From Dehalococcoidia bacterium (lineage in GTDB: Bacteria > Chloroflexota > Dehalococcoidia > Lucifugimonadales > JAGWBF01): DNA of 64,000 bases. The stretch's first letter is position 1; each line of letters starts with the position of its first letter. The translations under genes were made by a program, and so were the position numbers. The stretch spans positions 31,400 through 95,399 of the forward strand of contig CBDDDW010000019.1 in assembly GCA_965226805.1 (NCBI GenBank). Direction: 5' to 3'. Positions 26,173-61,466 of the stretch are shown one piece after another. The notes below the pieces were generated by a model. The model had not been told where the DNA came from and did not search any database. It worked only from the letters and a program-made list of their open reading frames with translations.

Positions 26173-26261
26173 TGTCATTCTGAGCCGCAGGCGAAGAATC
26201 TGGTAGTGTGGGGTCCCCTCCCTTCCAGATTCTTCGGTCGCTGCACTCCCTCAGAATGACA
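26173..26261. repeat. REP-like element class A
   Basis: TGTCATTCTGAG..GAAGAATCTGG ... CCAGATTCTTC..CTCAGAATGACA hairpin. Confidence 0.85.
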
Positions 26262-33545: not shown

Positions 33546-33935
33546 ATGACAAATCGCCATTCGACCGGATCAGCGGTCCTAACCTTCCTGAGTAAAAGAT
33601 CTACCGCAAAGTGGATCATCGTTGTGTCTGTCACGGTAGCCTATGTTTTAGCTTACCCGTTTTTGGACAGCGCAGGCATCCTCTCCACGATTCCGGTGCT
33701 TTTGACGGCTTGGTTTTTTGGGTGGCCGGCGGGCCTGATCGTTGCCTTCTTGTTCTTTCCATTGAACTTGGTGCTTGTGCGCACATTCAGTGAAGAGGAA
33801 TCGCTGGAATGGATTAAAGGCGGAGGTGCACTGGGCGTCATAGTCCTTGCAGCAACAGCGCTCGTGGTGGGGTTGCTCCAGGACCTGGGGGCAAAAGCTT
33901 TGCGAACTTCTCAAGAGCTGCGTGAGTCCAAAGAG
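33546..33935 (+). pseudogene. Membrane sensor N-terminus truncated by IS
   Basis: Four TM segments followed by ELRES coiled linker, cut at the IS end. Confidence 0.6.
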
Positions 33936-35474
33936 TGTAGGGTGTCAGCGCAATTGGACACTATTGAGGCCTAGAAAACCGAAGAGGTTGGGGGTGGTAG
34001 AGGCTCCTTCAGAGGGGTAGATTAACCCTAAGTGAAAGGAGTCATTGATGACCCAGGTAGAGGATCAGGCCAGCCAAGCTGAGGAGCGAAGCCAGGAGAC
34101 ACGAAGCTTCGTGCGTCAGGTCCGTGCAGCGACCCGCCGTAAGTATACCCCTGAAGAGAAGATCCGCATCGTCTTGGAGGGGTTCAGACGGGAGACTACC
34201 GTTAATGACCTGTGCCGACGGGAAGGAATCAAACCCCACTCCTACTACGCCTGGACGAAGGGGTTCATGGAAGCTGGGAAGGAGAGGTTGACTCGGGACA
34301 GTGTGCGTGATGCGACCCGGCAAGAGATAGAGCAGCTCAAGCGGGAGAACAGAGAACTGAAGCAGCTGGTGGGTGAGTTGTCCCTGGAGTTGCACCGCTT
34401 CAAAAAAACAGCTCTGCCGCCCCTACACGACAACGGCACCGTCGCATGAGCGTAGTGGAACAATCGAAGGTCGTGGCTGAGGTGGAGCGACATGGTAGAG
34501 GGAAGAACAGGCGACTCAGGGAGCTTGGCATTTCCAGGAGCACGTATTATTGGTGGAGGTGGAGGCACCGGCAGGGTAGTTGGGAGGGTACGGAAGGAAC
34601 TGAGAGGCCCTGGAATCGCCTGCGTCCAGAAGAGGAGGCAGTAGTGCTGGCGGCAGCCCGTGGGATGCCGACCTGGCGAAGCCGGCAGTTGGCGGCTTCG
34701 CTCACCGACCACAGAGGCCTATCGGTCTCCGCCTCCACAGTCTATCGTATTCTGAGACGGGAGGGTCTGGTGAAACGGATCGAATACCAGTTGGCAGCGA
34801 GCAAAGAGTACCAGCACAAGACCACAGGGCCCCACCAGCTGTGGGCCACCGATGCCTCCTACTTCCGTGTAGTGGGATGGGGCTACTACTACCTCGTGAC
34901 GGTGATGGACGACTACTCCCGGTTCATCTTGGCCTGGAAGGTGCAACGGGACATGACGGCCAACTCCCTCATAGAGGTGGTCCAGGAAGCTGTTGACTCT
35001 ACTGGTATGACTGATGTACCTCTGGAGGATCGGACCAAGCTCCTCTCAGATAATGGCTCAGGTTATGTATCGCGGGCCTTCCGCGAGTACATGCGGGTGG
35101 TGGGCATTCGCCACGTCCTGGCAGCACCCTATCACCCTCAGACCAACGGGACGCTGGAGAGATATCACCGAACCCTGAAAGACGACATTAACCAGGTGCC
35201 ATACGAGGTGGTGGAAGACCTGGAGGCGGCCATCCGGGACTTCGTCGAGTTCTACAACTACCGAAGATATCATCAGGCGCTCAGGGTTGTAACTCCGGCT
35301 GACGTGCTGGAAGGCCGTCTGGAGACAATTCTAGCCCAGAGGAAGGAGGTACAGCGAGAGACTTTTGACCGGCGGAGGCGGTACAATCAGGAGGTCAGAG
35401 AAACCCTCAAACCAGGAGCTTCTTCACCCCAATCTCTCGGACCCAGAACTGTCCAAAACCGCTGACACCCAACA
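33936..35474 (+). mobile_element. Two-ORF IS3/IS481-type element, complete copy 1 (orfA 34045-34449, orfB 34446-35465)
   Basis: IRs TGTAGGGTGTCAGCG..TTGGACA / TGTTGGGTGTCAGCG..TTGGACA; A7 slippery run; W.TD.SYF, SDNG..Y, HPQTNG..ER; no target duplication. Confidence 0.9.
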
Positions 35475-43755: not shown

Positions 43756-43761
43756 ATTTAG

Positions 43762-45504
43762 CCGATATTTCCCAGATGGAATCCAGTGCTTTCATAAACA
43801 CACCATCCTGAGACAGTCCAGACTATAAGATCGCCTGCTGAAGTTGTCAACTGCCACCAACCGCGCTAATATCACTTCATCTAGAGAAACAGGGTCTCCA
43901 AACCACTGGGAAAGGCTCTAAACGGATTATTCAGACCGAACCTCACGCTGCAAGTCGCGCACCTTGCTCAGGGCAGCCTCGATATGATCACGATTCCCTA
44001 ACAGACACATGCTCCTATCCAGAATTGAAACGAAGTCTCCCTATCCGCTCCAGCATTTCATCGAACATCTCCCTGGTCACCATCACCTCGGCAAGCTGGA
44101 ACACAAGCCTCCTCGCATGACGCACCAGTCGCCCGCCTATCTTGATGAGTCTCGTCTGAATACTTGTCAGGGACCAGCTCTTTATCGCTTCTGGCAGAGC
44201 CAGCCTTCTGAAGAAGTTGCCCAGATTGTATGCCAGGATGAATAGCCACAGCCTCACCTAATTAGCCACGAACTTATGGCACGAGAGCCGAGTCCAATTG
44301 AGGGCGTATTTCCCCTCTTTAATCCACTGCTCTGCTGTGCCTCTGCCATTGTAGAAGCTGACTAGTCCCTTCGTTGGATAGCTCAGGTTGGTTACGATGA
44401 AGCCTACTCTTGGGAACAGTTCTCCCTGATGCCACTCCACCTTGGCCACTACTCTTCGAGGAACATTCCAACTCTGGGCCTGATAAACGAAGTCGTGATA
44501 CGAGACGATGGGCTTTTGAGAGGGCCACTCGGTAGGCCGTACCAACAGGTGAGCTATTTCCTTCTGAAGCACTTCGTTCGCCGGAAGCCTTATGGCGTAG
44601 CCGATATGCCTTGTCTCCAGGTACTCGTAAATCTCAGGCTTGGCAAAAGCAGCGTCTGCTCGAAACAGCAGCCTCACCGCCAGCTTCAGGTAGCGCTCGA
44701 CGATGGGATTGATGAACTCCTTCCAGCCATCGGCGCTGTGGACGTTGCCTGGTCTGAGAACCGCCCCTTCGCAATCTCCAAACTGGTTGAAGCAGAACAA
44801 GGGGTGATAGCACATGCATCCAAAGTGGCCGTTGTAGGCTGCTTCCTCCTGCTCGCCATGCACCGGACTCTCCGAACTGTCGATGTCCAGGATGATACGC
44901 CTGTGTACGGTCTTGGCTAATGCACGTTTTATCCATTCGACATTCAGCCGCTCAATGCCCTTGAGGTTTTCCTTTTGTGTCAGCAACTCCGTCTCGAACC
45001 TACCCATCTCGCTGGTGCTGGCCGCGTTCCTGTCAGGGCCTTTCCAGCCTACCACTACTCTCAGGGCTGGGTCTTGGGAAAGGCGGTCGGCATCATTGGT
45101 GTCGTCGTATCCAGCGAGGCGGCTGTAGACTGACTGTCTCAGCAGTGGGATTAGCTGATGCAGGATGTTTTTGCCCGTTCGACTCTCTTTGAGGAATTCG
45201 TCGGCAGAGTCGGTCAGGCTTAGGGCGTCATCAAGCTCTCTGCACGCCAGCAGTCCTGCGTCTGAGGTGATGGTAGCACCGCGAAACTCCACGCGAACTT
45301 TGGAGTCAAAGTCGAGCTTGAGAGGGGTCTTTTCGTCGTCACCCATAAGGTGCCTCCAACACGATTACGTAATCAGAAGCCAGAACCTATATTCATGGGT
45401 GTATTATAATGTATAGACTCCCATTATATCCGTTTAGTAATCAGAATATTCATAGTAATCACAGGAACGCCAATCACCACTTGGGTCTATCTGGGAAATC
45501 CAGG
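43762..45504 (-). mobile_element. IS1380-family element copy 1 (transposase with CAG>TAG at 44258-44260)
   Basis: 1743 bp, IRs CC..ATTTCCCAGAT, 5-bp target duplication TTTAG; TSDAGLL, LDIDS, RAD..F, YN.RG..E..IKE. Confidence 0.95.
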
Positions 45505-45590
45505 TTTAGACCATACACGGAATCAGACGACGCGGTAGCAGCAGACCTATGGCGATTCTGCTCTGAGGTTGCCGCTATGAGGGAGACGCC

Positions 45591-46882: not shown

Positions 46883-47811
46883 TGTTGGGTGTCAGCGGTT
46901 TTGGACAGTTCTGGGTCCGAGAGATTGGGGTGAAGAAGCTCCTGGTTTGAGGGTTTCTCTGACCTCCTGATTGTACCGCCTCCGCCGGTCAAAAGTCTCT
47001 CGCTGTACCTCCTTCCTCTGGGCTAGAATTGCCTCCAGACGGCCTTCCAGCACGTCAGCCGGAGTTACAACCCTGAGCGCCTGATGATATCTTCGGTAGT
47101 TGTAGAACTCGACGAAGTCCCGGATGGCCGCCTCCAGGTCTTCCACCACCTCGTATGGCACCTGGTTAATGTCGTCTTTCAGGGTTCGGTGATATCTCTC
47201 CAGCTTCCCGTTGGTCTGAGGGTGATAGGGTGCTGCCAGGACGTGGCGAATGCCCACCACCCGCATGTACTCGCGGAAGGCCCGCGATACATAACCTGAG
47301 CCATTATCTGAGAGGAGCTTGGTCCGATCCTCCAGAGGTACATCAGTCATACCAGTAGAGTCAACAGCTTCCTGGACCACCTCTATGAGGGAGTTGGCCG
47401 TCATGTCCCGTTGCACCTTCCAGGCCAAGATGAACCGGGAGTAGTCGTCCATCACCGTCACGAGGTAGTAGTAGCCCCATCCCACTACACGGAAGTAGGA
47501 GGCATCGGTGGCCCACAGCTGGTGGGGCCCTGTGGTCTTGTGCTGGTACTCTTTGCTCGCTGCCAACTGGTATTCGATCCGTTTCACCAGACCCTCCCGT
47601 CTCAGAATACGATAGACTGTGGAGGCGGAGACCGATAGGCCTCTGTGGTCGGTGAGCGAAGCCGCCAACTGCCGGCTTCGCCAGGTCGGCATCCCACGGG
47701 CTGCCGCCAGCACTACTGCCTCCTCTTCTGGACGCAGGCGATTCCAGGGCCTCTCAGTTCCTTCCGTACCCTCCCAACTACCCTGCCGGTGCCTCCACCT
47801 CCACCAATAAT
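46883..47811 (-). mobile_element. IS3/IS481-type element copy 2, 3' part
   Basis: Near-identical to 34546-35474; cut by IS1380 at 47812. Confidence 0.92.
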
Positions 47812-49554
47812 CCTGGATTTCCCAGATAGACCCAAGTGGTGATTGGCGTTCCTGTGATTACTATGAATATTCTGATTACTAAACGGATATAATGGGAGTC
47901 TATACATTATAATACACCCATGAATATAGGTTCTGGCTTCTGATTACGTAATCGTGTTGGAGGCACCTTATGGGTGACGACGAAAAGACCCCTCTCAAGC
48001 TCGACTTTGACTCCAAAGTTCGCGTGGAGTTTCGCGGTGCTACCATCACCTCAGACGCAGGACTGCTGGCGTGCAGAGAGCTTGATGACGCCCTAAGCCT
48101 GACCGACTCTGCCGACGAATTCCTCAAAGAGAGTCGAACGGGCAAAAACATCCTGCATCAGCTAATCCCACTGCTGAGACAGTCAGTCTACAGCCGCCTC
48201 GCTGGATACGACGACACCAATGATGCCGACCGCCTTTCCCAAGACCCAGCCCTGAGAGTAGTGGTAGGCTGGAAAGGCCCTGACAGGAACGCGGCCAGCA
48301 CCAGCGAGATGGGTAGGTTCGAGACGGAGTTGCTGACACAAAAGGAAAACCTCAAGGGCATTGAGCGGCTGAATGTCGAATGGATAAAACGTGCATTAGC
48401 CAAGACCGTACACAGGCGTATCATCCTGGACATCGACAGTTCGGAGAGTCCGGTGCATGGCGAGCAGGAGGAAGCAGCCTACAACGGCCACTTTGGATGC
48501 ATGTGCTATCACCCCTTGTTCTGCTTCAACCAGTTTGGAGATTGCGAAGGGGCGGTTCTCAGACCAGGCAACGTCCACAGCGCCGATGGCTGGAAGGAGT
48601 TCATCAATCCCATCGTCGAGCGCTACCTGAAGCTGGCGGTGAGGCTGCTGTTTCGAGCAGACGCTGCTTTTGCCAAGCCTGAGATTTACGAGTACCTGGA
48701 GACAAGGCATATCGGCTACGCCATAAGGCTTCCGGCGAACGAAGTGCTTCAGAAGGAAATAGCTCACCTGTTGGTACGGCCTACCGAGTGGCCCTCTCAA
48801 AAGCCCATCGTCTCGTATCACGACTTCGTTTATCAGGCCCAGAGTTGGAATGTTCCTCGAAGAGTAGTGGCCAAGGTGGAGTGGCATCAGGGAGAACTGT
48901 TCCCAAGAGTAGGCTTCATCGTAACCAACCTGAGCTATCCAACGAAGGGACTAGTCAGCTTCTACAATGGCAGAGGCACAGCAGAGCAGTGGATTAAAGA
49001 GGGGAAATACGCCCTCAATTGGACTCGGCTCTCGTGCCATAAGTTCGTGGCTAATCAGGTGAGGCTGTGGCTATTCATCCTGGCATACAATCTGGGCAAC
49101 TTCTTCAGAAGGCTGGCTCTGCCAGAAGCGATAAAGAGCTGGTCCCTGACAAGTATTCAGACGAGACTCATCAAGATAGGCGGGCGACTGGTGCGTCATG
49201 CGAGGAGGCTTGTGTTCCAGCTTGCCGAGGTGATGGTGACCAGGGAGATGTTCGATGAAATGCTGGAGCGGATAGGGAGACTTCGTTTCAATCCTGGATA
49301 GGAGCATGTGTCTGTTAGGGAATCGTGATCATATCGAGGCTGCCCTGAGCAAGGTGCGCGACTTGCAGCGTGAGGTTCGGTCTGAATAATCCGTTTAGAG
49401 CCTTTCCCAGTGGTTTGGAGACCCTGTTTCTCTAGATGAAGTGATATTAGCGCGGTTGGTGGCAGTTGACAACTTCAGCAGGCGATCTTATAGTCTGGAC
49501 TGTCTCAGGATGGTGTGTTTATGAAAGCACTGGATTCCATCTGGGAAATATCGG
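47812..49554 (+). mobile_element. IS1380-family element copy 2 (intact transposase 47970-49301)
   Basis: 1743 bp, inverted near-identical copy of 43762-45504; flanks ATAAT / CTGAG do not match. Confidence 0.95.
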
Positions 49555-49969
49555 CTGAGAGGAGCTTGGTCCGATCCTCCAGAGGTACATCAGTCATACC
49601 AGTAGAGTCAACAGCTTCCTGGACCACCTCTATGAGGGAGTTGGCCGTCATGTCCCGTTGCACCTTCCAGGCCAAGATGAACCGGGAGTAGTCGTCCATC
49701 ACCGTCACGAGGTAGTAGTAGCCCCATCCCACTACACGGAAGTAGGAGGCATCGGTGGCCCACAGCTGGTGGGGCCCTGTGGTCTTGTGCTGGTACTCTT
49801 TGCTCGCTGCCAACTGGTATTCGATCCGTTTCACCAGACCCTCCCGTCTCAGAATACGATAGACTGTGGAGGCGGAGACCGATAGGCCTCTGTGGTCGGT
49901 GAGCGAAGCCGCCAACTGCCGGCTTCGCCAGGTCGGCATCCCACGGGCTGCCGCCAGCACTACTGCCTC
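49555..49969 (-). mobile_element. Internal fragment of the IS3/IS481-type element
   Basis: Matches 47308-47722; fused in frame to the gene X N-terminus. Confidence 0.9.
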
Positions 49970-49975
49970 ATAGTG
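49958..49975. other. Left inversion junction, CACTAC-TGCCTC-ATAGTG
   Basis: IS sequence to the left, gene X to the right; core TGCCTC is the reverse complement of GAGGCA at 57764. Confidence 0.85.
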
Positions 49976-50713
49976 TTCGTCATACTCCGCGTCCGGCACA
50001 TCCGCCAGGCCGTAAGAGTAGTCCTCGCCATCAAGGAACTTTTGAAAACTCTCTGCGTCCTCGAATAGTGGCCGCACCTCATCCTCGGTTGGCACCTTCG
50101 AATAGAGGTGTTTTGCTCCGCTCATCATCCCGTAAGCGCCATCAGGCAAGGCAGTATTGCCTTTGGCCAGAAAGCTCTCTAACAGCCATTGGCCCAGGTC
50201 GTCGCCTTCTTCCAGCAATTCCCAGGTCATAACGTAATGCTGCTTGGCCGCTTCCACCGCAGCCGCTGTCTCTGAATCCAGGGGATACGGCGTCTCGATC
50301 CCTACCCGAATCTGGTTCCACCGCATTCGCCGGCCGAGAGCCTGTTCTCTCAGCAGCGATTTCAACTCCGCTATCAAGAACCTACCTTGGGTCCAGAAAT
50401 ACCGTTCCTCCGAGATCAGCTTGCGGTTAACCTGCTGGTGTAGAAAGAACAGGAACAGGACGTCCTTGTAAGCCTGGCGCACTGCTTTGTCGATTTCCTC
50501 CCGAGTGTGTCCCTTAAGCGTTTGCTTAACAGCCTCGGCTACCTGGTCTGTTAACCTGGGTATCGGCGCGGCGCTGTCCGGCTGGCTCTTCAGGTGATGG
50601 ATATATTCAAAAATGGTATTAAAGCCGTGTGCTTCTTGAAACCACAGCAGGATGGCCTGCTTGGGAGTCAGGCCAGTCTCCAGCTTCGCGACCCTTTGTA
50701 TGTTCTTGCTCAC
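49964..50713 (-). pseudogene. Hypothetical gene X, N-terminal 250 codons
   Basis: MSKNIQRVAKLE..LTPKQAILLW...; continues as 57770-58810 when the inversion is undone. Confidence 0.75.
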
Positions 50714-51147
50714 GAGTCAACCTCGGCGCTGAAACCTGTGTCGACGGGTTCAGCGTCGAACACCGACTCCGGCAGGGTTTTCTGACCATGCGCCGCTTCC
50801 AGTGCAGCTAGGCGTTCCTCCAACTCCCCGGTCTCCAAGAGTTTACCCGCCACTCCGACCAGGTAGCCCAGGGTGCGGGCCCGGGCGATGGAGTTTTCCA
50901 GACCCAGGGTGTCCAGGGAGGCAATCACTAGCAACCGCCGCAGGTCGCCCACTGTTTCCAGCCCATTGACCTCGTAGGCCCCGGACACCGCCACTTCACG
51001 TCGCCGTCTCAGTCCTCCCAAGCGCCGTGCCTCGGCCACATCTTCGGCATACTCGGGGGAGTGCCAGAAGCAGTGATCCCCGTCCTTTACGGGAGCCGCC
51101 CGGCACATCTGCCCATCCTCCTTCCGAAATGCGCACTGACGGCCCAT
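50710..51147 (-). CDS. Mobile-element hypothetical protein with N-terminal Cys/His motif
   Basis: C....DG..C.A......C.WH, RRLGG.RR, ELEERLAALE; GTGA coupling to gene X. Confidence 0.7.
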   Translation of the reverse strand: MGRQCAFRKEDGQMCRAAPVKDGDHCFWHSPEYAEDVAEARRLGGLRRRREVAVSGAYEVNGLETVGDLRRLLVIASLDTLGLENSIARARTLGYLVGVAGKLLETGELEERLAALEAAHGQKTLPESVFDAEPVDTGFSAEVDS

Positions 51148-51259
51148 TACCTGTGATTACCTCTGCTAGTTGACCAGTTGGTAGTCAGATGCAACAGAGC
51201 AAAAGGCAGGCTCCATTGAGAAACCTGCCTCAAGCAAATGAAATTATTCAAACCAGCGC

Positions 51260-51715
51260 TCAGGCTTCTGTGGTTGCCACTTGGACCCCATTCGATGTGT
51301 GCCCTTCTGGACACTGCTCTGCAGGTGCGCCCACCGGCGCCGTGAAACTCTTCTGGCAAGCGTCGCAGTAGAGTCTCACTTCTCCTTCCTCGACGCCCTT
51401 TTGATTTGGCACTCGCCGGAACCCAGCGGTGGGCGTTTGCTCCCCAGTCTCCGTTTCTTCCGATGCGTCGCCCTCGGGCTCCTCCGCTTCGCTGGGGGCG
51501 CCGCCGGCCTCGACGCTCCAAAAGGCCCAACCGTTGCAAGCCTTGTTGGTGATGGCGGTACCCGCCGATGAGGGACTCTTGAACTCTCTCCCGTCGGCCA
51601 GCCGGTACTTGACCTTCCCGTCCTCTCCGGCTATCACCTCGGCTTTGTATTCCTCCTTCTTGTATTTGGCAATCAGCTTCGTACCCGGTTCCAGGTTGCG
51701 GTCCTCGATGGCCAT
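51260..51715 (-). CDS. RAMA-like domain protein with C-terminal Zn ribbon
   Basis: L.A.YK...Y.AEV..DG...DG.EF.SPS.AG..I....NGW.FW, then C..C..F......CP.GH; GGAGG RBS. Confidence 0.7.
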   Translation of the reverse strand: MAIEDRNLEPGTKLIAKYKKEEYKAEVIAGEDGKVKYRLADGREFKSPSSAGTAITNKACNGWAFWSVEAGGAPSEAEEPEGDASEETETGEQTPTAGFRRVPNQKGVEEGEVRLYCDACQKSFTAPVGAPAEQCPEGHTSNGVQVATTEA

Positions 51716-51829
51716 TTGCCACCTCCTCACGTTTAGAAGATGGTATATACCTCACTCTGTCTTCGCCGGAAGTAAAGGGATATCGGCAAAGTGGAGGTAG
51801 CTGACCAATGTTCTCTTGGAGACGACGGT

Positions 51830-51847
51830 CACTACGTCGCCATAGTG
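51830..51847. other. Palindromic site CACTAC-GTCGCC-ATAGTG
   Basis: Intergenic copy of the motif seen at the inversion junctions and at 58819. Confidence 0.7.
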
Positions 51848-51866
51848 TTCGCTCCAGCTTCACCTA

Positions 51867-53123
51867 TCACTGGTTCTCCTTCGTGGCCTGCTCCCCGGTG
51901 AAAGACTCCCACCGCTTGACCGCCACATCAACGTACTGAGGCTCGCGTTCCAACGCATAGCAGACCCGACCAAGCTTTTCCGCCGCGATCAGCTGAGTGC
52001 CGCTGCCCAAGAAGGGCTCGTAGCAGAGGTCCCCAACCTCGGTGTGGTACTCGATTGGCCGCAAGAAGAGTTCCAACGGTTTCTGGGTAGGATGGATGTT
52101 CATGCTGGAACCCTGCTGGTCCAGCTGCCAGATGGTCCTCTCGTTAGCCGGGGGCTTCTTAGAGGGTTGGTGGCCTTCAACCCAGCCGTAGAAACATGGT
52201 TCGTGGGCCCACAGATAATGGCTATGAGTCAGTACCCCACGGGCCTTGGCCCAGATTATTTGCTGATGCACCAACAAACCGCTCTCCCGCCAGGCCTGCT
52301 CCACCAAGGCCTGCCTACGGTAGGCGTGCCACTGATAGATGGCTGAGTTTGGCTTAAGGTGTTCCAGGCTCAATGTCAAGAACTTTCGGTAGAACTCCAC
52401 CGACGCCTCTGGGTCCACGTATTCGTCCCAGTGCTTGTCTTTGCTCGGCTTGCCCTGGTTACCCTTCGAGGCTGGATGGTTGCCGCCCGTGTAGTCCACA
52501 AGATATGGCGGGTCCGTCGCCATCAATGAAGCTTTCTCCCCGTTCATCAATCGCCCTACGTCGCCACTGTCAATGGAATCGCCACACAGGAGCCTGTGGT
52601 CGCCTAGCAGCCATAAATCGCCTGTACGAGCCACAGGGGTCGTCCGTGCGGCTTCCATTGCTTCATCCAGGTCGAATGTCTCTAAACGCTCACGTTTCTC
52701 CCTCGACTCCAGGCTCTTTAGATGCTTCTGGAGTTCATCCTCAGAGAAGCCGGTCAATGTGATGTCTACATCCGGTAGGTCCTTCAATTCACCCAAGAGC
52801 CGGGCCAGGAGCTCTTGGTCCCAACTTCCGGAGATTTTGTTGAGGGCCAGGTTCAACAGATGAGCTTGCTCCTCGGGTAGGTCCACCAGAACCACGGGCA
52901 CTTGCTTCAGTCCGAGCTTCCTGGCTGCAAGCAGGCGCTGGTGGCCGCCTATTACCACCTTGTCCTCCCTCCGGGCGATGATTGGGTCGATGAGCCCGAA
53001 CTCTCTTATGGACCGGGTCAGCGACTCCAACTCCTCGTCGCTTATGCGCCTCGGGTTGGCTGGGTCGGGACGCAGGTCGCCGATGGGCAGGTGGGTGATT
53101 TCTAGCTCTTGGATTTGTTGCAC
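51867..53123 (-). CDS. ParB N-terminal domain + N4/N6 DNA methyltransferase
   Basis: NPR, SIREFG..DPI, GGHQRL; GDLWLLG.HRLLCGDS, TDPPY, HPTQKP, EPFLGSG. Confidence 0.92.
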   Translation of the reverse strand: MQQIQELEITHLPIGDLRPDPANPRRISDEELESLTRSIREFGLIDPIIARREDKVVIGGHQRLLAARKLGLKQVPVVLVDLPEEQAHLLNLALNKISGSWDQELLARLLGELKDLPDVDITLTGFSEDELQKHLKSLESREKRERLETFDLDEAMEAARTTPVARTGDLWLLGDHRLLCGDSIDSGDVGRLMNGEKASLMATDPPYLVDYTGGNHPASKGNQGKPSKDKHWDEYVDPEASVEFYRKFLTLSLEHLKPNSAIYQWHAYRRQALVEQAWRESGLLVHQQIIWAKARGVLTHSHYLWAHEPCFYGWVEGHQPSKKPPANERTIWQLDQQGSSMNIHPTQKPLELFLRPIEYHTEVGDLCYEPFLGSGTQLIAAEKLGRVCYALEREPQYVDVAVKRWESFTGEQATKENQ

Positions 53124-53165
53124 GGCTCTACCTCGCTTTGTCGTTTCCTTTCCCAGCCTCGACAC

Positions 53166-53273
53166 AGTGACGGGAGTGACGCAATGAACCCCCTTTTTCA
53201 CAAACATCCCTTACAAAGAGTGAATTGAAAATAGTTTGTGAAATTGACCCCTCGCTGCGTCACTTATGTCACT
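53166..53273. other. Candidate replication origin of the primase element
   Basis: AGTGACG x2 facing inverted TGCGTCACT and TGTCACT across an AT-rich spacer at the primase 3' end. Confidence 0.45.
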
Positions 53274-55680
53274 GGTTGGCTTTCAATCCAATCCCCAGAA
53301 AATAGCGTTTCCCATTCGAAGATACGGAGTCTCCGAATCGCTCCCTGATGCGCGTGCCGAAGGAGCGGGACCCCAACCTGTGGCGCTCCAGGATTCCTTG
53401 CTCCTTGGACCAGCGTTGGTATTCGGAGAAAAGGTGCCCCGGCTCCGCCCTAACGCCGTCGGCCACCACGCAACAGTCCGCGACGAAGCCGTCCAGTTCG
53501 TCGTTGTCCTTTCTGTAGGCTTGGGTGGCGGTCATTACCGCCGAAGGGGGCGCTAGGCCAACCAGTCGCCAATTCAGTGCTCCCTGTACTCCCCAGTTGA
53601 GTATCCCCGGCAACTCTTCTAGCAACTTGAAGGGAAGCCCTTTGTCCGCATCATCCCCCGTAAACTGCTCATTGAACGGCAGCACTCGTACTCTACGCCA
53701 GAACCCATAAGAGTCGTCCCTCACTCGAGGCAAGTGGTTCACCGCCAGCCAGAACTTGGCCACTGGCTCGTAGGTGAAGGATTCGCTATACAGAAAACGT
53801 GCGGTGATGGGATCTCCTCCGGTCAACGCCTTAATGCGAGCCTCGTTCAACCGTGTGGACTCGTTAGTCTCTGAGGAAGTCACAAGTCTTCTCCCTGCCA
53901 TCGAGGCTAGGTCGTTGGTCAATGAAGGTCTTTGCTGTAGCTCTAGTACCGTGAATGGAATGTTCATGGCATAGTCCCCTAGCACGTTTCTCAACATGTC
54001 CAAGAACACGCTTTTGCCGTTGGACCCTGTGCCGTGGCAGAGGAATAGAACCTGTTCCCGAACCGAACCCGTCAGGGAGTACCCCAGGGCCCGCTGCACA
54101 AACCCAATAAGTTCTCCGTCACGCTGGAACACCTGGTGAAGAAATTGCTGCCATCTCGGACACTCTGCCTTCACGTCGTATTGCACCGGCACCTGCATCG
54201 TAAGCCGGTCGTCGGGGTGCCCGGAACGTATCATTCCAGTACGCAAGTCCACTACTCCGTTGGCCACGCCAAGCAGGTAGGGGTCGGGGTCCCAGGTCAT
54301 ACCTGAGTCGGCTATTGGGTGTTCGCTACGGGCCAGGGCAAGACAAGCATCCAATCTCTGGCGTGATTCAGACCTTACAGCAGAGCTGGCGGTCTTACCG
54401 CGCAAATCCAGGTCTTCGATATCCAATGCGGTCCGGTAGCGAACACGGGCTGCTTTCTTGGCCAGACGGCGTACCTCGCCATCAGAATCAGGCGCCCACC
54501 GGTGCTCTTCCCAGATGAGCCACCGGTTTCTGGCATGGTCGAAGCGCAGGATATGGCCGTAGAGGGCGGCGAATAATTCAGCGTTGCCGGCGTCAGTCAA
54601 AGGAAACGGGCCGTTCTTGTCTTTAGGGTTGAGACTTTGGCCATTTTTTGAGAAGGTCAGGCCCAGCGCCACCTTCCACTCCTGCCAGCCCCTCGGCTCC
54701 GTTTCGGCATGAAAACACTTGCCAGCGTAGGGCCCGTCGGGCAGCTTTTGCCCTACGCCGCACTCGAATGGATGACACTCGTCATAATGGAATGGGCACT
54801 TTTCCACGTGGTACCAGGTCACGCCGTTCCCATCCAGCGGCTGTGTCCTGTACTCGATGTGCCGGGATTGGAGCAATTCCTCTAGTAAAGGTGTTGACCC
54901 ATTAAATATGGAGCCATCTTTAGGTAAATTAGCTTCTGGTTGCGATTGTTCGGCTGCAAGTTCGGCCAGCAATTCCTCGCTGATTACTGCTAACTGCTGA
55001 GGAACTGACTCCAATTGGGACCGCCGGTGGGGCCTATCCGTTAGAAAGTCACCCTTGACCTTCATGCTGCCGATGAGCCCGGCGAGGCGCGCTGCGTTGC
55101 AGACGGTGGTGTCAATGTGGACGGCCTCGTTGTTGAATCGAGTTGCCAGCGATACCAGAACCCCTTGAACCAATTCCAGGGAGGACGGATCGTTGGGCAA
55201 GCTGATGGGATAGAGGAGATACCACCCGTTGCCAGACATGGCGACGATAGGTTGGGGCCAGTCTTTGTTGTCTAGGAAGGACACAACCTCGTCTAACACC
55301 AGTCGTGCTGCTTGGCGTTCTTCCTCAGTGCTGCTGATGCCAGAGGGCCGGTACGGGTCGATATCTATGAATAGCGAGCGCCGTCTTATCACGTCGACAT
55401 CGGCGGAGGTGGTCTCTGCCTTGTCGGCGATTCGGTTGGAGGCCCGCGCCATAAGGGCCGGGTTCACAGGGTTCAGTGTAAAATATAGATTGGCCTTGCC
55501 GTCCCACTTGGCAGCAGATTCGGCTAGTGATTCCGGGCTATCGAAGTAGCCGGAGGCGGTGTGGCCGTATTTGTTATACTTGGGAATGCGAACTTCGCGG
55601 ACGTCCCCGGGCCGCCACAGCAGCTCGACAAAGCGCAGGATGTCTACAGTGACGCTTTCAAACTGAGGCTTGCCAGTCAC
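53269..55680 (-). CDS. P4-family phage/plasmid primase-helicase with N-terminal primpol-like domain
   Basis: FIDID, SGNG..L; D5-N TDAGNA..F, NGVVDL.TG; SF3 GTGSNGKS, IK.LTGGD.ITARFL, WRR. Confidence 0.92.
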   Translation of the reverse strand: MTGKPQFESVTVDILRFVELLWRPGDVREVRIPKYNKYGHTASGYFDSPESLAESAAKWDGKANLYFTLNPVNPALMARASNRIADKAETTSADVDVIRRRSLFIDIDPYRPSGISSTEEERQAARLVLDEVVSFLDNKDWPQPIVAMSGNGWYLLYPISLPNDPSSLELVQGVLVSLATRFNNEAVHIDTTVCNAARLAGLIGSMKVKGDFLTDRPHRRSQLESVPQQLAVISEELLAELAAEQSQPEANLPKDGSIFNGSTPLLEELLQSRHIEYRTQPLDGNGVTWYHVEKCPFHYDECHPFECGVGQKLPDGPYAGKCFHAETEPRGWQEWKVALGLTFSKNGQSLNPKDKNGPFPLTDAGNAELFAALYGHILRFDHARNRWLIWEEHRWAPDSDGEVRRLAKKAARVRYRTALDIEDLDLRGKTASSAVRSESRQRLDACLALARSEHPIADSGMTWDPDPYLLGVANGVVDLRTGMIRSGHPDDRLTMQVPVQYDVKAECPRWQQFLHQVFQRDGELIGFVQRALGYSLTGSVREQVLFLCHGTGSNGKSVFLDMLRNVLGDYAMNIPFTVLELQQRPSLTNDLASMAGRRLVTSSETNESTRLNEARIKALTGGDPITARFLYSESFTYEPVAKFWLAVNHLPRVRDDSYGFWRRVRVLPFNEQFTGDDADKGLPFKLLEELPGILNWGVQGALNWRLVGLAPPSAVMTATQAYRKDNDELDGFVADCCVVADGVRAEPGHLFSEYQRWSKEQGILERHRLGSRSFGTRIRERFGDSVSSNGKRYFLGIGLKANQ

Positions 55681-55985
55681 GGTTTCTTTCCAGAGCCGCG
55701 GCCTGCCGCAATTTCAAGCGTCCTGGAGACGGTGTTGTAGTTTAGTTCTCCACGGATGCCCGTGGAGGTATTGACTACAGCAGGGAACCGGTACTCTATC
55801 AGCACTTTCGCCTTCTTGCCTTCCGGCTCAACCTCCGTGTGAACGGTGATCTGTTTCACCAGCATCCGCACCACCTCCTGCTTCTGAGTATCATCCAGAC
55901 CGTCATCCAGCCTGCTGCGAAGCTCTCGCAATAAGTCAGGTTCCAGCGGCTTCTGATGCTCTGACGCATGGCAATCTGGAATGCT
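55677..55985 (-). pseudogene. Large serine recombinase C-terminal remnant
   Basis: LL.ELR.RL......KQEVVR.LVKQITV......V.IEY.F; catalytic domain absent. Confidence 0.6.
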
Positions 55986-56203
55986 TCAAACTGTGATTTC
56001 AGTTGATCCCATGCGCCAGGCAACCCACTTTCGATGGACCGCATTTCCGACGCAGAGTTGGACCCGTCCTCTCCCAGGTATACCTTGATCAGGTAGTCGC
56101 AGGCGCCGCAGCAGACGAATTCAATCGGACAGCGCTTGTCTCTCATGATGCGGTCACGGGCACCTTGAACCAATCTCCGCTCCTTTCGGGATATCCGTTC
56201 CAT
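55986..56203 (-). pseudogene. Hypothetical ORF N-terminus joined out of frame to the recombinase remnant
   Basis: GGAGG RBS, TAGATG coupling to the upstream ORF, CxxC-like motif; boundary approximate. Confidence 0.35.
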
Positions 56204-56719
56204 CTACGCAACCTCCTGCGGCTGGGCCGCCACCCCCGCCTTGGTCAACGTGTACTGGTCGGGAAAGCCCTGGACAAAGGCCACAAAGGACTCCTTACTT
56301 TGGTGGTGCATCGACAAGCCTTGATACGGCTGCCCACGCCAATATGGAGGTACAAATTCCGTTTTCACGCCCGATACCACACATTCGGCCTCCACACCCA
56401 CAAAGTCGGTGGGCCCTTGGCCTACGGCGATAATCTCCCAACGTCCAGAGTCTTCTTCCCCGGTGTCCTCGGCCTTGCTCTTCCAGTTCTGCGAGCCGCC
56501 GTAAGGATGGAACCGGCCTTCATCATCCTGACGATCAGGAGGGTGAATCGATTTCAAGGCATCGATCAGGATCGGTATGACGTCCTCGATGGGTTCGAAA
56601 CCGGCCAATCCGGCCACATCGGTCAAGTAAAGAACGTAACCTTTCGTGGCGGCAGAAGAAGGCCGACCCACCTGACTTCTTTTAGTGTGTGACTTCTCTG
56701 ATGCGGGCAAGTCCGTCAC
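56204..56719 (-). CDS. Hypothetical protein
   Basis: 171-aa ORF co-oriented with and coupled to the island genes. Confidence 0.55.
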   Translation of the reverse strand: MTDLPASEKSHTKRSQVGRPSSAATKGYVLYLTDVAGLAGFEPIEDVIPILIDALKSIHPPDRQDDEGRFHPYGGSQNWKSKAEDTGEEDSGRWEIIAVGQGPTDFVGVEAECVVSGVKTEFVPPYWRGQPYQGLSMHHQSKESFVAFVQGFPDQYTLTKAGVAAQPQEVA

Positions 56720-57064
56720 CTTCCATAAGGAAGGCGACGCCCGAAGTGTTAAGCGGCTAAGCAGCCCAAGCTACTGTGTAAGCAGCCCAGGAGCGGGGTA
56801 CACGATGGGGGATGATAACAGGAGACGTTTGGAGTTGAGGGATATGGAGCCTACTCCACCTCCCCGTCCAGAGCACGACATTACCGATCTCAGGGGCGGA
56901 GTCCAGTGTTCCAGCCAGACTTAGAGGTGTGTTGTCACCTTAGGGCGATTGCTAGACTGCGCTCATAATACCAGCAGGTTTGGTCCGTCACCAGCTCCTC
57001 ACGCGGCAGGTCTCACAGGCATGTGTGCCCGTTGGGCAATCAGCCAAAGTAACCCTCCTGAGTG

Positions 57065-57769
57065 TGCAGGGTGTCAGCGCAATTGGACACTATTGAGGCC
57101 TAGAAAACCGAAGAGGTTGGGGGTGGTAGAGGCTCCTTCAGAGGGGTAGATTAACCCTAAGTGAAAGGAGTCATTGATGACCCAGGTAGAGGATCAGGCC
57201 AGCCAAGCTGAGGAGCGAAGCCAGGAGACACGAAGCTTCGTGCGTCAGGTCCGTGCAGCGACCCGCCGTAAGTATACCCCTGAAGAGAAGATCCGCATCG
57301 TCTTGGAGGGGTTCAGACGGGAGACTACCGTTAATGACCTGTGCCGACGGGAAGGAATCAAACCCCACTTCTACTACGCCTGGACGAAGGGGTTCATGGA
57401 AGCTGGGAAGGAGAGGTTGACTCGGGACAGTGTGCGTGATGCGACCCGGCAAGAGATAGAGCAGCTCAAGCGGGAGAACAGAGAACTGAAGCAGCTGGTG
57501 GGTGAGTTGTCCCTGGAGTTGCACCGCTTCAAAAAAACAGCTCTGCCGCCCCTACACGGCAACGGCACCGTCGCATGAGCGTAGTGGAACAATCGAAGGT
57601 CGTGGCTGAGGTGGAGCGACATGGTAGAGGGAAGAACAGGCGACTCAGGGAGCTTGGCATTTCCAGGAGCACGTATTATTGGTGGAGGTGGAGGCACCGG
57701 CAGGGTAGTTGGGAGGGTACGGAAGGAACTGAGAGGCCCTGGAATCGCCTGCGTCCAGAAGAGGAGGCA
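57065..57769 (+). mobile_element. IS3/IS481-type element 5' part (orfA 57174-57578 and orfB start)
   Basis: Near-identical to 33936-34640; identity ends at GAGGCA 57769. Confidence 0.92.
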
Positions 57770-58810
57770 ATAGTGGAAGCCCTCAAGTGCCTGATCCCGG
57801 CTGGCCTTGTCGTGGACCTGCCTACCGTGCCCCACCAGTTCCTGAGAGAGGCGCCATTGGTTGACGGCGACTGGATCGACAACTACATGGTGGAGTTGGC
57901 CGAGTGGGGCGCGAGAATAAGGGAGAGGGAATTCCTGCTGGAGGAACCCGAAGACAACCACCCTATGGCCTGGCACGGGATTATCGACCCGAAGGATGGG
58001 TCCGAAGTCGACGCTGCGGTAGCGATAAAACTATGGCAACAGACCAGGAAACACTTGGCTGGATTTCCCGGCCGCACCAGGGTAATAGACGAGCGGCAAT
58101 ACCTGAGCTTCGCCGACTATCTGAAGTGGCGGGGTCGTCGTGCCAAAGGAGACTTGAAGTCCGCCATGCGCACGGGCCTGGTGGTGTCCACATGGAACCA
58201 GTGGGTTGAGGAGCATGGCTGCGAAGGTGCGGCATTCTTGGCCGGAACGGAAGTGGCAAAGCTCAGTTGCTACCTTGATGGCTATCGATACCGCGTCTGT
58301 CAGGATGCCGGGGAGTTGGCGGAAGAAGTAAGCCGGCGTGAGTCGTTGCTAGAATCTGTAAAGGTTTGGGAACCAGACAGCAGTAATGATGAGCGATTCC
58401 GTCAGCGGGTTGAACACTGGAAGATATCGGCCCTAGGCTTTCTTCCGGAGATATACATTCTGAGCCGAGCAATTAACTCAATCAGCCAACGGTACTTTGA
58501 AGGGCAGGACCCTCTGTTCTCCGAAGTGTCTGATGGGTTTGGTCAACTGTTGGCCTTGGTGGAGAAATTAGTCCATATTTACAACGAGGCCTTGGCGGGG
58601 GACATTGAACGCTCGGAAAGGCTGTTAATGGAGACGGGAGACGGGCAAGATGAATCTCCACTCACGATAGACCTGGCTGGATTGGTTGAGACCGTCCAAG
58701 GGTCTGCCAGAGAGCAGGTTGCCTTCTTGGTGGACATGGCAAAAGCCGACGCGCTGGATCTACTTGGCGAGACCCGTCAAGCGTTCGAGTTGGTAGACCG
58801 TCACGTTTGA
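57770..58810 (+). pseudogene. Hypothetical gene X, C-terminal 346 codons
   Basis: Open frame IVEALKCLIP...VDRHV fused in frame to IS orfB. Confidence 0.75.
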
Positions 58811-59242: not shown

Positions 59243-60388
59243 TCAGGTTGCACGTATTTTGCTTTGAACGAGAACATCAAGAATTCGGCCAGTTGATGGT
59301 CGCGACGGGGTGGTGAGGCTCGGGAGGTTTTGCAGGTCTGCATCTGAGTTAGCCACCAAGAATTGTTTTGACTCCCACGCTACCAGGGCATTTAGTTCCT
59401 GAACGATGTCAAAAGAGATGCTCCCTGAACGTAATCTGTAGGTTTTGGGCGCCAGCACGCAGGATAGTTGGGGAGACAGCGGATAGTAAAAGGCGAGTTC
59501 TTTAGTTTCGCTGCCATCTCCGGTACCCAAGAGGTTAACTACCGGTTGGTCTGCCGTAATAAACCCAAGGTCACATCCATTCTCCTCGAAGACAATGTCA
59601 AATTCCTTTCTATCTACAAAAAGACTAGTCGTGTGTCTGCCAAATGGGTTTACAATACGTCAGCGCTCGACGTGGCCCCCCGGTCTGCCTCCTCTCCCTA
59701 TGGGAGAGGATTGAGGTGAGGGTGAGACCGGGGTTCGCGGGGAGGACCTCCTCATATCAGCATTGTAATGCTATATACGAGACACTAGACTAGCTCCCAC
59801 ATTCTCGGCACCTATGTAGCTGATTATATTCCTGAGTCGATCAAAAGCGTGATCAGGAAACTCTTCAACCAGGGCTTCTCCAATCGCTTCGCGACCAGGT
59901 TCGGTACGGAAATACTGATGGGCAATGAAGTGGAAAAACATTATCGACTCTTCATAACTATTCAGGAAGTCAGTCCGCTTTTCGCGCAACGCTGCGAGGA
60001 TGGGCAAGGCGCATTCTTCTGTTTTGGAATGCAACATTTCTTCTGCATCAATGACAAGTCCTTCAATAAACCTTCTATCCTGGTCTGCTGCTCCACCATT
60101 GTTTTGAATTAGTTCGTTTGCCTGAGAGATACGCGCCCAAGTAGCAACGAGTTTTCGGTGAGAGGCCCTTAACGCTGCGTGGCCGGTCTGTTCAATGAAA
60201 AGTTCGAGAAAGCGCACATCAGTTTGTGTAATTACGGGCAACTTATAAGTATGCCGGGCTACCATTACGTTCACAGGGTTGGATGGGGGAAGTATCTCCC
60301 CGTCTCTTGAGAAATGTACAAAACCGCGTTGGTCTTGCCATGCTTCAAGATAATGGCGCCATACTGTGTGCTGTCTGTCAGTGGGCAT
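59243..60388 (-). pseudogene. DUF4238-like protein interrupted by a MITE
   Basis: QH.VW..YL..W N-terminus, QYFRT, FITADQPV; removing 59628-59792 restores GASLFVDRKEF in frame. Confidence 0.75.
59628..59790 (+). mobile_element. 163-bp IS630-derived MITE carrying a class C REP hairpin
   Basis: TA duplication; right end encodes CNAIYETLD* like the IS630 transposase end CKAIYETLD*; IRs GTCGTGTGTCT / GTCTAGTGTCT. Confidence 0.85.
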
Positions 60389-60737: not shown

Positions 60738-61466
60738 TCACAGGGGAAGCGTCCGCCCTGCCTCCCACAGGAGTCGGCGACGCTGCTGCGCATCCGGCAT
60801 CGCCTTGGCCACTAGGCCCCAGAAGTCCGTCGAGTGGTTCTGATGGGTCAGGTGCGCCAACTCGTGGACGACGACGTATTCGATGAGGGCCTGCTCCAGC
60901 ATCAAGGTGCGCCAGTTGAAGCGCAGTGTACCGTCGGGTGCGCAGCTCCCCCAGCGTTGGCGCTGGTCGCGGACGAGTATCTGCGACTTTTCTCCGCGAC
61001 CGAGCCGGGGCCACCAGCGGTCAACAGCATTCGGCAGCCGCTCGGCAGCCCGGTCCCGATACCATCCGACGACTGCACGGCGAATCGGCTCGTAGCGTTC
61101 GAGGCCGCTCAGGGTCTTCGGTACTGTGACTCGGAAGCGCCAGTGGTCGAAGCGTACCATAGGCGAACGTATGTCCGCGGTATCGACGATCATGCTGACG
61201 TTGCGTCCCAAGTACGGCAGGGTCTCGCCGCTGACGAAGCGCTTCGGCGCGGCTTCCAGCATCTCCCCAGACGCATGGCTGAGGATCCAGGGCGCCCGCT
61301 TGCGAACGATGGCTCGCAGCTCGCTGTCCGGCGTCGTCATGGGAGCGGCAACCTGCACACCGCCGCCGTCCGTCGTGATCTGGACCGTCTTCTTACGCCT
61401 CTCGCTTCGACGGACCTCGTAGTCGATGGTCGTGTTGCCGAAGCGGATACGACCCCGTTCGTTCAC
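60738..61466 (-). CDS. M48/YgjP (DUF45) metallopeptidase associated with type I R-M
   Basis: F.SGE...YLG, WGSC, FNW, YVVVHELAH..H.NHS..FW. Confidence 0.92.
   Translation of the reverse strand: MNERGRIRFGNTTIDYEVRRSERRKKTVQITTDGGGVQVAAPMTTPDSELRAIVRKRAPWILSHASGEMLEAAPKRFVSGETLPYLGRNVSMIVDTADIRSPMVRFDHWRFRVTVPKTLSGLERYEPIRRAVVGWYRDRAAERLPNAVDRWWPRLGRGEKSQILVRDQRQRWGSCAPDGTLRFNWRTLMLEQALIEYVVVHELAHLTHQNHSTDFWGLVAKAMPDAQQRRRLLWEAGRTLPL

Follow-up and report, generated by a model that had tools for sequence, protein, structure and literature searches.

A conservative 7.8-kb inversion joins an unannotated two-module gene to an IS3-family transposase at a near-identical 12-nt sequence in a Dehalococcoidia genome

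How did two open reading frames of a Dehalococcoidia genome, 7.8 kb apart, each become an in-frame hybrid between an insertion sequence (IS) transposase and a second gene, here called gene X, and was a dedicated recombinase involved? The locus lies in a 64,000-nt stretch of contig C19 (C19:31400-95399), referred to here as the window and numbered from its first letter. A sequence-only reading had proposed a precise reciprocal inversion through a 6-bp core, attributed to a tyrosine recombinase acting between a genuine site in gene X and a cryptic half-site in the IS. The IS-derived features are as follows.

33936..35474, plus strand: intact reference copy of IS-A, an IS3-family element of 1539 bp with ends TGTAGGGTGTCAGCG...CGCTGACACCCAACA
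34045-34449: orfA of the reference copy, HTH_Tnp_1 (Pfam)
34446-35465: orfB of the reference copy, rve/rve_3/HTH_32 (Pfam)
34635-34646: 12-mer of the reference copy, GAGGCAGTAGTG
47808..49556, plus strand: IS-B, an IS1380-family element of 1749 bp (DDE_Tnp_1_4, E 1.5e-135) that truncates the adjoining IS-A fragment
49555..49969, minus strand: 3'-ward fragment of the split IS-A, IS positions 1114 down to 700, cut on its left side by IS-B
57060..57769, plus strand: 5'-ward fragment of the split IS-A, with the left inverted repeat, orfA (57174-57578) and the first 65 orfB codons

IS-A is a member of the IS3 family, with an HTH orfA, a DDE rve orfB, TG...CA terminal inverted repeats and many copies. 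Twenty-nine copies in the genome are full length with the ends TGTAGGG... and ...CCAACA, and approximately 41 carry the 12-mer. The two fragments of the split copy are 100% identical to 34635-35049, in inverted orientation, and 99.3% identical to 33933-34646, respectively. A second copy of IS-B occupies 43760-45508, and roughly 17 near-full-length copies are present in the genome, as estimated by eye from BLAST rows.

The junctions and the genes affected by them are:

49505-50713, minus strand: left hybrid ORF, 402 aa, the gene X N-module fused in frame to transposase residues 67 onward
49958..49969, minus strand: left junction 12-mer, GAGGCA GTAGTG, preceded by CACTAT of gene X
49964-49969: exchange core GAGGCA at the left junction
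49964..50713, minus strand: gene X N-module, 250 codons, core included
49970..57763, no strand: inverted segment, 7794 bp, defined by the in-silico flip, Pfam and PHROGs scans and the un-flipped order in the related loci L011-L014; it contains the N-module of gene X, an ORF of 145 aa, another of 238 aa, small ORFs and the initial 704 bp of IS-A
51867-53207, within the inverted segment: ParB-N6/N4 methyltransferase
53269-55680, within the inverted segment: D5-type primase/helicase
57575-58810, plus strand: right hybrid ORF, 411 aa, the gene X C-module fused in frame behind 65 transposase codons
57764..57775, plus strand: right junction 12-mer, GAGGCA ATAGTG, preceded by GAAGAG of the IS and now reading GGAGG-CAATA-GTG
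57770..58810, plus strand: gene X C-module, 346 codons and a stop

The left junction reads CACTAT-GAGGCA-GTAGTG on the minus strand, the right junction reads GAAGAG-GAGGCA-ATAGTG, and the intact IS-A copy reads GAAGAG-GAGGCA-GTAGTG at 34629-34646, all three exactly as the sequence-only reading had reported. Its claim that reversing the segment restores both partners was reproduced as well: an in-silico flip of 49970-57763 rejoined the IS3-family element and a 596-aa ORF with zero bases gained or lost, and both present-day hybrids are open and in frame, the distal part of the left one retaining rve and HTH_32 (Pfam). The restored IS piece is contiguous over 1.1 kb; compared with the copy at 33933-35049, it shows 2 substitutions and, at its extreme end, a 2-nt indel. 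The restored ORF departs from the database protein P0001 by 3 residues, the start residue aside. The inversion is therefore conservative and reciprocal. The 6-bp core stood in part; GAGGCA is identical in both sites and is their longest exact run, the next base being different, but the stretch they have in common is longer, a 12-mer, GAGGCA[A/G]TAGTG, identical at 11 of 12 positions. The mismatch stays with its own right-hand flank at each junction, which places the exchange in or at the edges of GAGGCA. Repeats longer than 12 nt were absent from the junctions. When random inversion endpoints were drawn in the window, an exact overlap of at least 6 nt arose in 728 of 400,000 cases (0.18%; P = 0.0018), indicating that the microhomology at the endpoints exceeds chance.

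Database comparison provided evidence on the gene X half of the reconstruction. The N-module aligned to residues 2-255 of P0001 with 99% identity (tblastn), and P0001, the closest of the listed homologues, continues uninterrupted across the join (...AEYDEHYEA/IVEALKCLIP..., the slash marking the join). A search with the C-terminal half listed 120 homologues, and 82 of them have a length of exactly 596 aa. In relatives, the halves adjoin each other in collinear order, L011-L014 preserve the un-flipped order, and the sequences beginning at window positions 49958 and 57764 both map to L011 12738-12749, overlapping by 12 nt. Gene X was found in 4 of the 41 related genomes searched, the window's own genome counted; G032 carries three copies, all whole, while the copies in G001 and G005 contain in-frame stops away from the join. 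The family comprises 521 cluster representatives at E 0.001 or better and had no Pfam, PHROGs or PADLOC match. Gene X is a widespread, unannotated two-module family with a hypervariable cassette, located in a small, mobile primase/ParB-methylase island composed of a D5-type primase, a ParB-methyltransferase, two small ORFs and gene X.

The 12-mer in gene X separates an N-module of ~250 aa from a C-module of ~346 aa, which are two genes in many lineages. The C-module was found both alone, at 319-357 aa, and in fused forms, at 570-660 aa, with 30-40% identity, and six clusters (P0319, P0339, P0345, P0351, P0353 and P0370) consist of N-only ORFs ending at most ~6 codons from the motif. In L018, a TAG lies six codons before the ATA and the motif that follows is intact, and in L024 and L030/L048 gene X homology starts 12-15 nt before the ATA, with unrelated DNA upstream. 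Structure prediction gave a confident model for the C-module folded alone (pLDDT 91.2), compared to 48.1 for the whole protein, which was weak at residues 229-283. Third-codon-position conservation peaks at the junction, which ranked first of 544 seven-codon windows (0.89 versus a mean of 0.66, sd 0.078), and the motif forms the exact left edge of the hypervariable cassette, mismatches between island copies starting at the first codon after the GTG.

Both 12-mers also look like translation starts, with a Shine-Dalgarno core (GAGG or GGAGG), five bases and an in-frame GTG, a reading that draws on gene callers and split-gene variants. In IS-A, the GTG of the 12-mer is the transposase start assigned by gene callers, and of the 15 IS-A transposase entries listed for cluster 2 (46 members), 10 are 273 aa long, the length of the ORF starting at this GTG (window 46892-47713). 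Among the 120 listed gene X homologues, 8 start at the motif GTG, and the motif peptide is internal in 105. The 16S rRNA carries the CCTCC anti-Shine-Dalgarno sequence, and among 2103 long ORFs, 33% have GGAG or GAGG at -16 to -5, compared to 12% of random in-ORF places. An internal or intercistronic translation start at the module boundary fits both the conservation of the motif at the nucleotide level and the frequent ORF starts at its GTG. A common start signal would account for the 12-nt likeness of the two sites and, being in frame in both, for the fact that both hybrids stay open; in the right hybrid, the C-module keeps its putative signal, GGAGG-N5-GTG, behind the 5' part of IS-A.

Our preferred explanation, which we hold with roughly even confidence, is that the 7.8 kb were inverted in a real and recent event in the present lineage, by short-homology recombination. 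Before the event, IS-A would have lain in minus orientation, already cut by the IS1380-family element, ~7 kb upstream of the 596-aa gene. The two sites, with GAGGCA[A/G]TAGTG in common, would have been inverted relative to each other, and strand exchange inside the GAGGCA part, by short-homology (illegitimate) recombination between inverted repeats, would have produced the present order. The ~41 genomic copies of IS-A, each offering the same look-alike, may have constituted a supply of partners. We infer an enzyme-independent mechanism and a fixed, non-switching state. Inversion between short repeats is a class already known from spontaneous events in bacteria. The present case is most likely a tidy and fairly ordinary example, with no sign of a dedicated recombinase.

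The sequence-only reading had held that 6 bp is too short for RecA recombination. The homology is indeed very short, but the common stretch is 12 nt with one mismatch, and inversions at 12-18 bp have been published. In a genome-wide mapping study of Salmonella (PMC3411829), spontaneous inversions were verified with inverted junction homologies of 12-18 bp, while candidates with 7 and 9 bp failed verification. As in the present case, those inversions are reciprocal, with endpoints in short inverted homology and no mobile-element end or dedicated site; here, by comparison, the homology is 12 nt with a mismatch, exact over 6 nt, and belongs to a conserved functional motif. Comparison of the island with the IS-A remnant in inverted orientation gave 46 exact matches of at least 9 nt, the longest of 12 nt, as well as 31 positions at which 12-mers agree with no more than one mismatch (about 20 separate places after overlapping rows were grouped by hand). 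Better inverted matches than the one used were therefore available. Against a pure homology search, moreover, the site used is both the most nucleotide-conserved spot of gene X and a perfect palindrome, a coincidence with a likelihood of just a few per cent.

These last observations also bear on the possibility of a site-specific event, in which a tyrosine, serine or other recombinase, encoded outside the locus, would recognise the palindrome CACTAY-GAGGCA-RTAGTG as its genuine site and the IS-A 12-mer as a pseudo-site with the core and one arm in common, the inversion being perhaps reversible. Consistent with this, the exchange was conservative and confined to a 6-nt core that is identical in both partners, within the 6-8 bp of such overlaps, the motif is the conserved left edge of the hypervariable cassette, and the site was not the best available homology. 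Sites of tyrosine recombinases have inverted binding arms of roughly 9-13 bp flanking the overlap. The gene X palindrome, however, is a 6-6-6 arrangement whose arms (CACTAT/ATAGTG) are symmetric over 6 bp only, the next 6 positions matching at 2 of 6, and IS-A has one arm only, its left arm GAAGAG matching at 2 of 6. The RNA hairpin is unremarkable (z -1.16).

Scanning 45 window ORFs against Pfam gave no match to PF00589, PF00239 or PF07508, in agreement with the earlier statement that no tyrosine recombinase is visible in the window. The suggested search for integrases elsewhere identified 11 PF00589 matches (9 over the Pfam cut-off) and 12 PF00239 matches in the whole genome, none of them inside the window; the 9 PF00589 and 12 PF00239 matches over the cut-off could act in trans. 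The recombinase gene nearest to the window encodes a serine recombinase (C19:15731-16090), the island of relatives gave no recombinase domain, and the only one nearby in L011 is a serine recombinase 3.3 kb outside the common island. No other hybrid joined at the core appeared among the homologues listed in four protein searches (120, 150, 120 and 61, with ~60 sequences read). The broken forms examined among close homologues break instead near residues 67, 78, 85, 107, 130, 505, 530, 537, 540 and 565, and P0319 (...HYEA followed by SGE and a stop) looks like a frameshift inside the ATA rather than a new joint. The homology boundaries of L024 and L030/L048, which could be read as products of such a site, lie at -12 and -15 in L024 and L030, outside the core, and fit stand-alone C-modules that keep their start region, while 82 of the 120 listed homologues are whole. 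A site-specific event is therefore unlikely, and the specific proposal of a tyrosine recombinase at a genuine site found no support, given the 6-bp arms, the single arm in the IS, the lack of a recombinase in the window and the lack of another hybrid.

A somewhat less probable variant is programmed module shuffling, in which the 18-nt palindrome would be a true site for exchanging or inverting the C-module cassette, the IS-A transposase start a pseudo-site, and the present inversion an off-target product. hsdS-type shufflons are recombinase-driven inversions, and like invertons they have endpoints inside coding sequence, recode proteins and yield in-frame hybrids. Recombinase-driven invertons, including intragenic and partly intergenic ones, have been described (PMC10028968); these switch back and forth, usually with an invertase nearby, whereas the present locus has no invertase nearby, an unrelated IS as partner, very short repeats and no mixed orientation among the contig pieces listed.

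There is a slim chance of an assembly or library artefact, in which the true chromosome is un-flipped and the assembler was misled by chimeric molecules that arose at the 12-nt inverted look-alike, for instance through template switching in amplification. Amplification chimeras are typically inverted joins within a few kb at short complementarity. Moreover, four other metagenome runs, examined as contigs and none of them evidently the source (word share at most 0.79), contained un-flipped joints only among the pieces listed, the intact-gene joint in 3 of 4 and the intact-IS joint in 4 of 4. However, the contig contains the two reciprocal junctions, and the intervening 7.8 kb is consistent throughout. 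The assembly places dozens of IS copies of 1.5-1.7 kb within contigs, which suggests long-read data, and no mechanism is known to us by which assemblers of such reads might introduce an inversion at a repeat of 12 nt. The 411-aa right hybrid also occurs in exactly this form on 2 contigs of a big collection, C19 and a second contig of 861,941 bp whose assembly may derive from the same reads; the left hybrid is on record only on C19.

Cutting of both sites in GAGGCA by a sequence-specific nuclease (restriction type or homing), with matching overhangs religated in reverse, would be expected to leave no base gained or lost where two non-palindromic cores stand inverted to each other, and the surroundings are rich in restriction-modification functions (the ParB-methyltransferase in the segment, an HsdR-type subunit at 61463-63931, and a methylase-HNH and GmrSD in L011), but no nuclease of such specificity was identified, and the 41 other IS-A copies with the same core would be expected to show many more breaks, while no IS-A fragment elsewhere in the genome ends at the junction position, making this highly improbable. 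Inversion by the IS itself was rejected, as the junction falls ~700 nt inside IS-A (position 700-705 of 1539), away from its TG...CA ends, and neither junction has a complete IS or a terminus with target duplication. IS-mediated inversions, by IS-IS homologous recombination or intramolecular replicative transposition, resemble the present case in the IS partner and the very IS-rich genome, but they leave a whole IS, or an IS end and a target duplication, at each junction, whereas here a single IS copy was cut 700 nt inside and its halves lie at two junctions.

Gene X itself is reminiscent of fused and split gene pairs with a coupled start, occurring either as a 596-aa fusion or as N and C genes, with the C gene apparently starting at the motif GTG behind GAGG. 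The locus provides a natural example of an IS-rich, sponge-associated symbiont genome rearranging outside the usual IS-IS recombination, in which a single exchange at a 12-nt look-alike gave rise to two in-frame hybrid genes. If the start-signal reading holds, it has a wider implication: stretches comprising a ribosome-binding site and a start codon are alike by function and in frame by definition, and may for this reason be preferred sites of illegitimate exchange in which whole protein modules are swapped while their reading frames remain unbroken.

Reversing the segment at 49970-57763 (7794 bp; positions without a contig name refer to the window) by script yielded a contiguous piece of the IS3-family insertion sequence IS-A and a single 596-aa ORF, gene X, as the sequence-only reading had claimed, and the junction letters described there were matched exactly when the sequence was read. 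The rejoined IS-A piece differed from the intact copy by 2 substitutions and a 2-nt indel at the very end, while rejoined gene X differed by 3 residues, start residue aside, from the database protein P0001, its closest relative among the matches listed, which reads ...AEYDEHYEA before the join and IVEALKCLIP... after it. A search with the C-terminal half of gene X returned 197 relatives, of which the best 120 underlie the counts given here. Full-length single-ORF homologues, which had been proposed as support for the reconstruction, were common, with 82 of these 120 being exactly 596 aa, and the junction peptide was well inside the protein in 105 of them. Gene X was present in 4 of the 41 related genomes searched, including the window's own; one (G032) carries three copies, all whole, and copies in two others (G001 and G005) contain in-frame stops away from the join. 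Upstream of gene X, G032 and G001 share the window's gene set of a 145-aa ORF, a 238-aa ORF and a ParB-methyltransferase, with a D5-type primase present in some cases and absent in others. The two window halves map to relatives' loci at places overlapping by 12 nt. Because the flip restores both partners and relatives hold the halves together, we take the window's genome to carry a conservative reciprocal inversion relative to its kin.

Self-comparison resolved the repeats of the window into two insertion sequences, IS-A and IS-B, with the following features.

33936-35474: intact copy of IS-A, 1539 bp, IS3 family, orfA with HTH_Tnp_1 and orfB with rve/rve_3, ends TGTAGGG...CCAACA
49555-49969, minus strand: 3'-ward part of the split IS-A copy, IS positions 700-1114, cut further on by IS-B
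57060-57775, plus strand: 5'-ward part of the split IS-A copy, IS positions 1-711
IS-B: 1749 bp, IS1380 family, DDE_Tnp_1_4

The window corresponds to C19:31400-95399 of its genome. The genome (3.36 Mb, 30 contigs, GC 0.59) holds 29 full-length and 38 partial matches to IS-A and, by a by-eye estimate, roughly 17 near-full-length copies of IS-B, and many copies of both are located inside contigs. We also observed that IS-B lies at 47808-49556 between two IS-A pieces (46883-47811 and 49555-49969) that overlap in IS coordinates (611-1539 for the left piece and 700-1114 for the right one; an overlap of 504 nt after un-flipping). The matching other halves are found at C21:84826-85440, together with IS-B, and near C29:326685, a pattern that points to a possible exchange between copies of IS-B that had entered IS-A at two different sites.

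Both partners of the inversion contain GAGGCA[A/G]TAGTG, identical at 11 of 12 positions, and since the one base that differs has remained next to its original right flank, the exchange occurred within GAGGCA or at its borders. Window self-comparison showed no repeat of more than 12 nt at either junction. Exact overlap of at least 6 nt was obtained for 0.18% of 400,000 random inversion endpoints drawn in the window; the junction position is not random.

Within gene X, this sequence belongs to the motif GCA CAC TAY GAG GCA RTA GTG, whose nucleotide sequence is conserved even among homologues sharing no more than 60-70% protein identity. Ranked by third-position conservation, its seven-codon window comes first among 544 (0.89 versus a mean of 0.66, sd 0.078). 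The ORF starts exactly at the motif's GTG in 8 of 120 homologues among the matches listed, and at loci L024 and L030/L048 gene X homology starts at the motif, beside unrelated genes. This conservation, the GTG starts and the boundaries at L024, L030 and L048 at first seemed to favour a genuine recombination site. The motif is best read as the predicted translation-start region of the C-module, the C-terminal part of gene X, at a boundary where fused forms turn into split ones and vice versa, because representatives at 30-40% identity include both stand-alone C-modules (319-357 aa) and fused proteins (570-660 aa), in six clusters N-only ORFs terminate no more than about 6 codons from the motif, and locus L018 has a TAG six codons ahead of the ATA, followed by an intact motif. 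The protein P0319 (...HYEA SGE stop), which looks like the product of a frameshift inside the ATA, the fold predicted for the C-module alone (pLDDT 91.2, compared to 48.1 for the whole protein, which is weak over residues 229-283) and the spacing within the motif, GAGG then five bases then GTG, point the same way. The organism has a CCTCC anti-SD and uses such start signals. The tyrosine codon that is TAG in L018, six codons ahead of the motif's ATA, is also TAG in a second lineage, L004 (G005), where the motif itself is degenerate and further stops interrupt the gene.

Scanning the species genome collection for the motif identified 7 loci, of which tblastn showed two to be gene X relatives, namely L048 (same lineage as L030) and L051 (a whole gene); the other five look like probable chance matches. 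The genome that carries L048 showed no N-module at another location, and a related-locus search of genome contigs with P0001 gave no match. The minimum-free-energy RNA fold does contain a hairpin around the motif, but its z-score is only -1.16. A hot-spot idea derived from 345-aa ORFs was largely rejected, these being stand-alone or split-gene forms, and P0317, the only junction-spanning protein among the matches listed for the left hybrid, proved to be plain gene X with a truncated C-terminus.

The 12-mer of IS-A reads GGAGG, CAGTA, GTG and would be the same kind of signal as the gene X motif, a predicted start region. The entries for the IS-A transposase in cluster 2 (46 members) are 273 aa long in 10 of 15 cases among the matches listed, the length of the ORF beginning at the GTG of the 12-mer (46892-47713). 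Two start regions lying in the same frame would account both for the 12-nt likeness and for both hybrids being open. In the flipped form, the C-module is preceded by the 5' part of the IS and by GGAGG-CAATA-GTG.

As to mechanism, we give about even odds to inversion by short-homology exchange, since verified spontaneous inversions with 12-18 bp of inverted junction homology are described for Salmonella in PMC3411829, and 41 IS-A copies offer the look-alike 12-mer. The IS-A remnant and the island share 46 inverted exact matches of at least 9 nt and 31 12-mer positions at which no more than one base differs (some 20 separate places when overlapping rows are grouped), so homology alone does not single out the site used, and this richer homology on offer weighs against a purely homology-driven event. 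Given that the site is also the most conserved spot of gene X and a small palindrome (CACTAY-GAGGCA-RTAGTG), a recombinase acting at a site or pseudo-site is kept as a rival, albeit an unlikely one. The arms of this site, however, are only 6 bp, the IS has one arm, and no other hybrid joined at the core occurs among the homologues listed in protein searches, all of which speak against a dedicated recombinase, including the tyrosine recombinase that had been proposed; in the other broken forms of close homologues that were examined, the breaks fall near residues 67, 78, 85, 107, 130, 505, 530, 537, 540 and 565. The gene content speaks against one as well: the sequence-only reading had rightly seen no tyrosine recombinase in the window, where 45 ORFs scanned contained no recombinase domain, and the integrase search it suggested found 11 PF00589 and 12 PF00239 matches in the genome, all outside the window. 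Separately, an open-ended ORF on the minus strand of L030 (1-252), 2.4 kb from its stand-alone C-module gene, resembles by eye the N-terminal domain of a tyrosine recombinase.

A transposase-mediated event was rejected, the junction being internal to IS-A, 700 nt inside it, and bearing no likeness to the IS-A ends; no other IS-A fragment ends at this position, and both this and the internal location weigh against IS-mediated routes. By eye, ACACTAT-GAGGC of gene X and a subterminal part of the left IS-A end are alike at 12 of 13 positions, away from the breakpoint.

That the inversion is an artefact appears improbable, as both reciprocal junctions are present, no repeat at them exceeds 12 nt, and the exact 411-aa right hybrid also occurs on another contig, 861,941 bp long; for the left hybrid, the window's contig, C19, is the only one on record. 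Four metagenome runs from four studies (X1, X5, X6 and X10; word share with the stretch 0.71-0.79) were compared as contigs, which derive from other samples, none evidently the source. The intact IS-A joint was seen in all four and the intact gene X joint in three (X1, X5 and X10), and none of the pieces listed in the four runs bridged a flipped junction, which is uninformative on the source sample. Cutting by a nuclease followed by rejoining is very improbable.

Island copies hardly differ as far as the GTG, after which divergence begins with the first codon and continues to about nt 1330; the C-module therefore opens with a hypervariable cassette (57776-58350; nt 757 to about 1330 of gene X). 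The cassette has 5-24 mismatches per 60 nt, compared to mostly 0-3, and up to 7, in flanking bins. Its pattern is mosaic, with the window matching locus L011 again from about nt 845. Gene X had no match in Pfam, PHROGs or PADLOC and no usable match in the protein atlas, and the whole-protein model was too poor for structure search. In the confident C-module model (57770-58807; m448eeace0f38), long helical hairpins come after an alpha/beta domain. Foldseek retrieved no PDB structure for it with an E-value of 0.001 or below, and the matches from VIA-align were all of a generic helical-hairpin kind, the best (Z 7.9) covering residues 203-293.

Several other elements were noted. A second island copy in the same genome (C6:4342-9321) is without the primase (compare 53096-56063), and there gene X breaks off at residue 67, where the end of a different multi-copy element cuts into it; primase-less forms also occur at L011, at L014 and as a contig joint in run X10. 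A repeat of ~170 nt (59625-59794), with roughly 35 occurrences on some 17 contigs by eye at 93-100% identity, looks like a putative miniature mobile element. A DUF4238 ORF lies at 59771-60388, and a YgjP-like metallopeptidase and an HsdR-type type I restriction subunit lie right of the island (60738-63931). A 42-nt repeat family has three copies (4651-4692, 9578-9619 and 26173-26214), with 79-86% identity to the copy at 9578-9619.

The event works in the same way as inversions between short inverted repeats, of which it is one more case, and resembles the recombinase-driven intragenic or partly intergenic invertons described in PMC10028968 in outcome only. The coincidence of predicted start signals at both exchange sites is a modest new idea.
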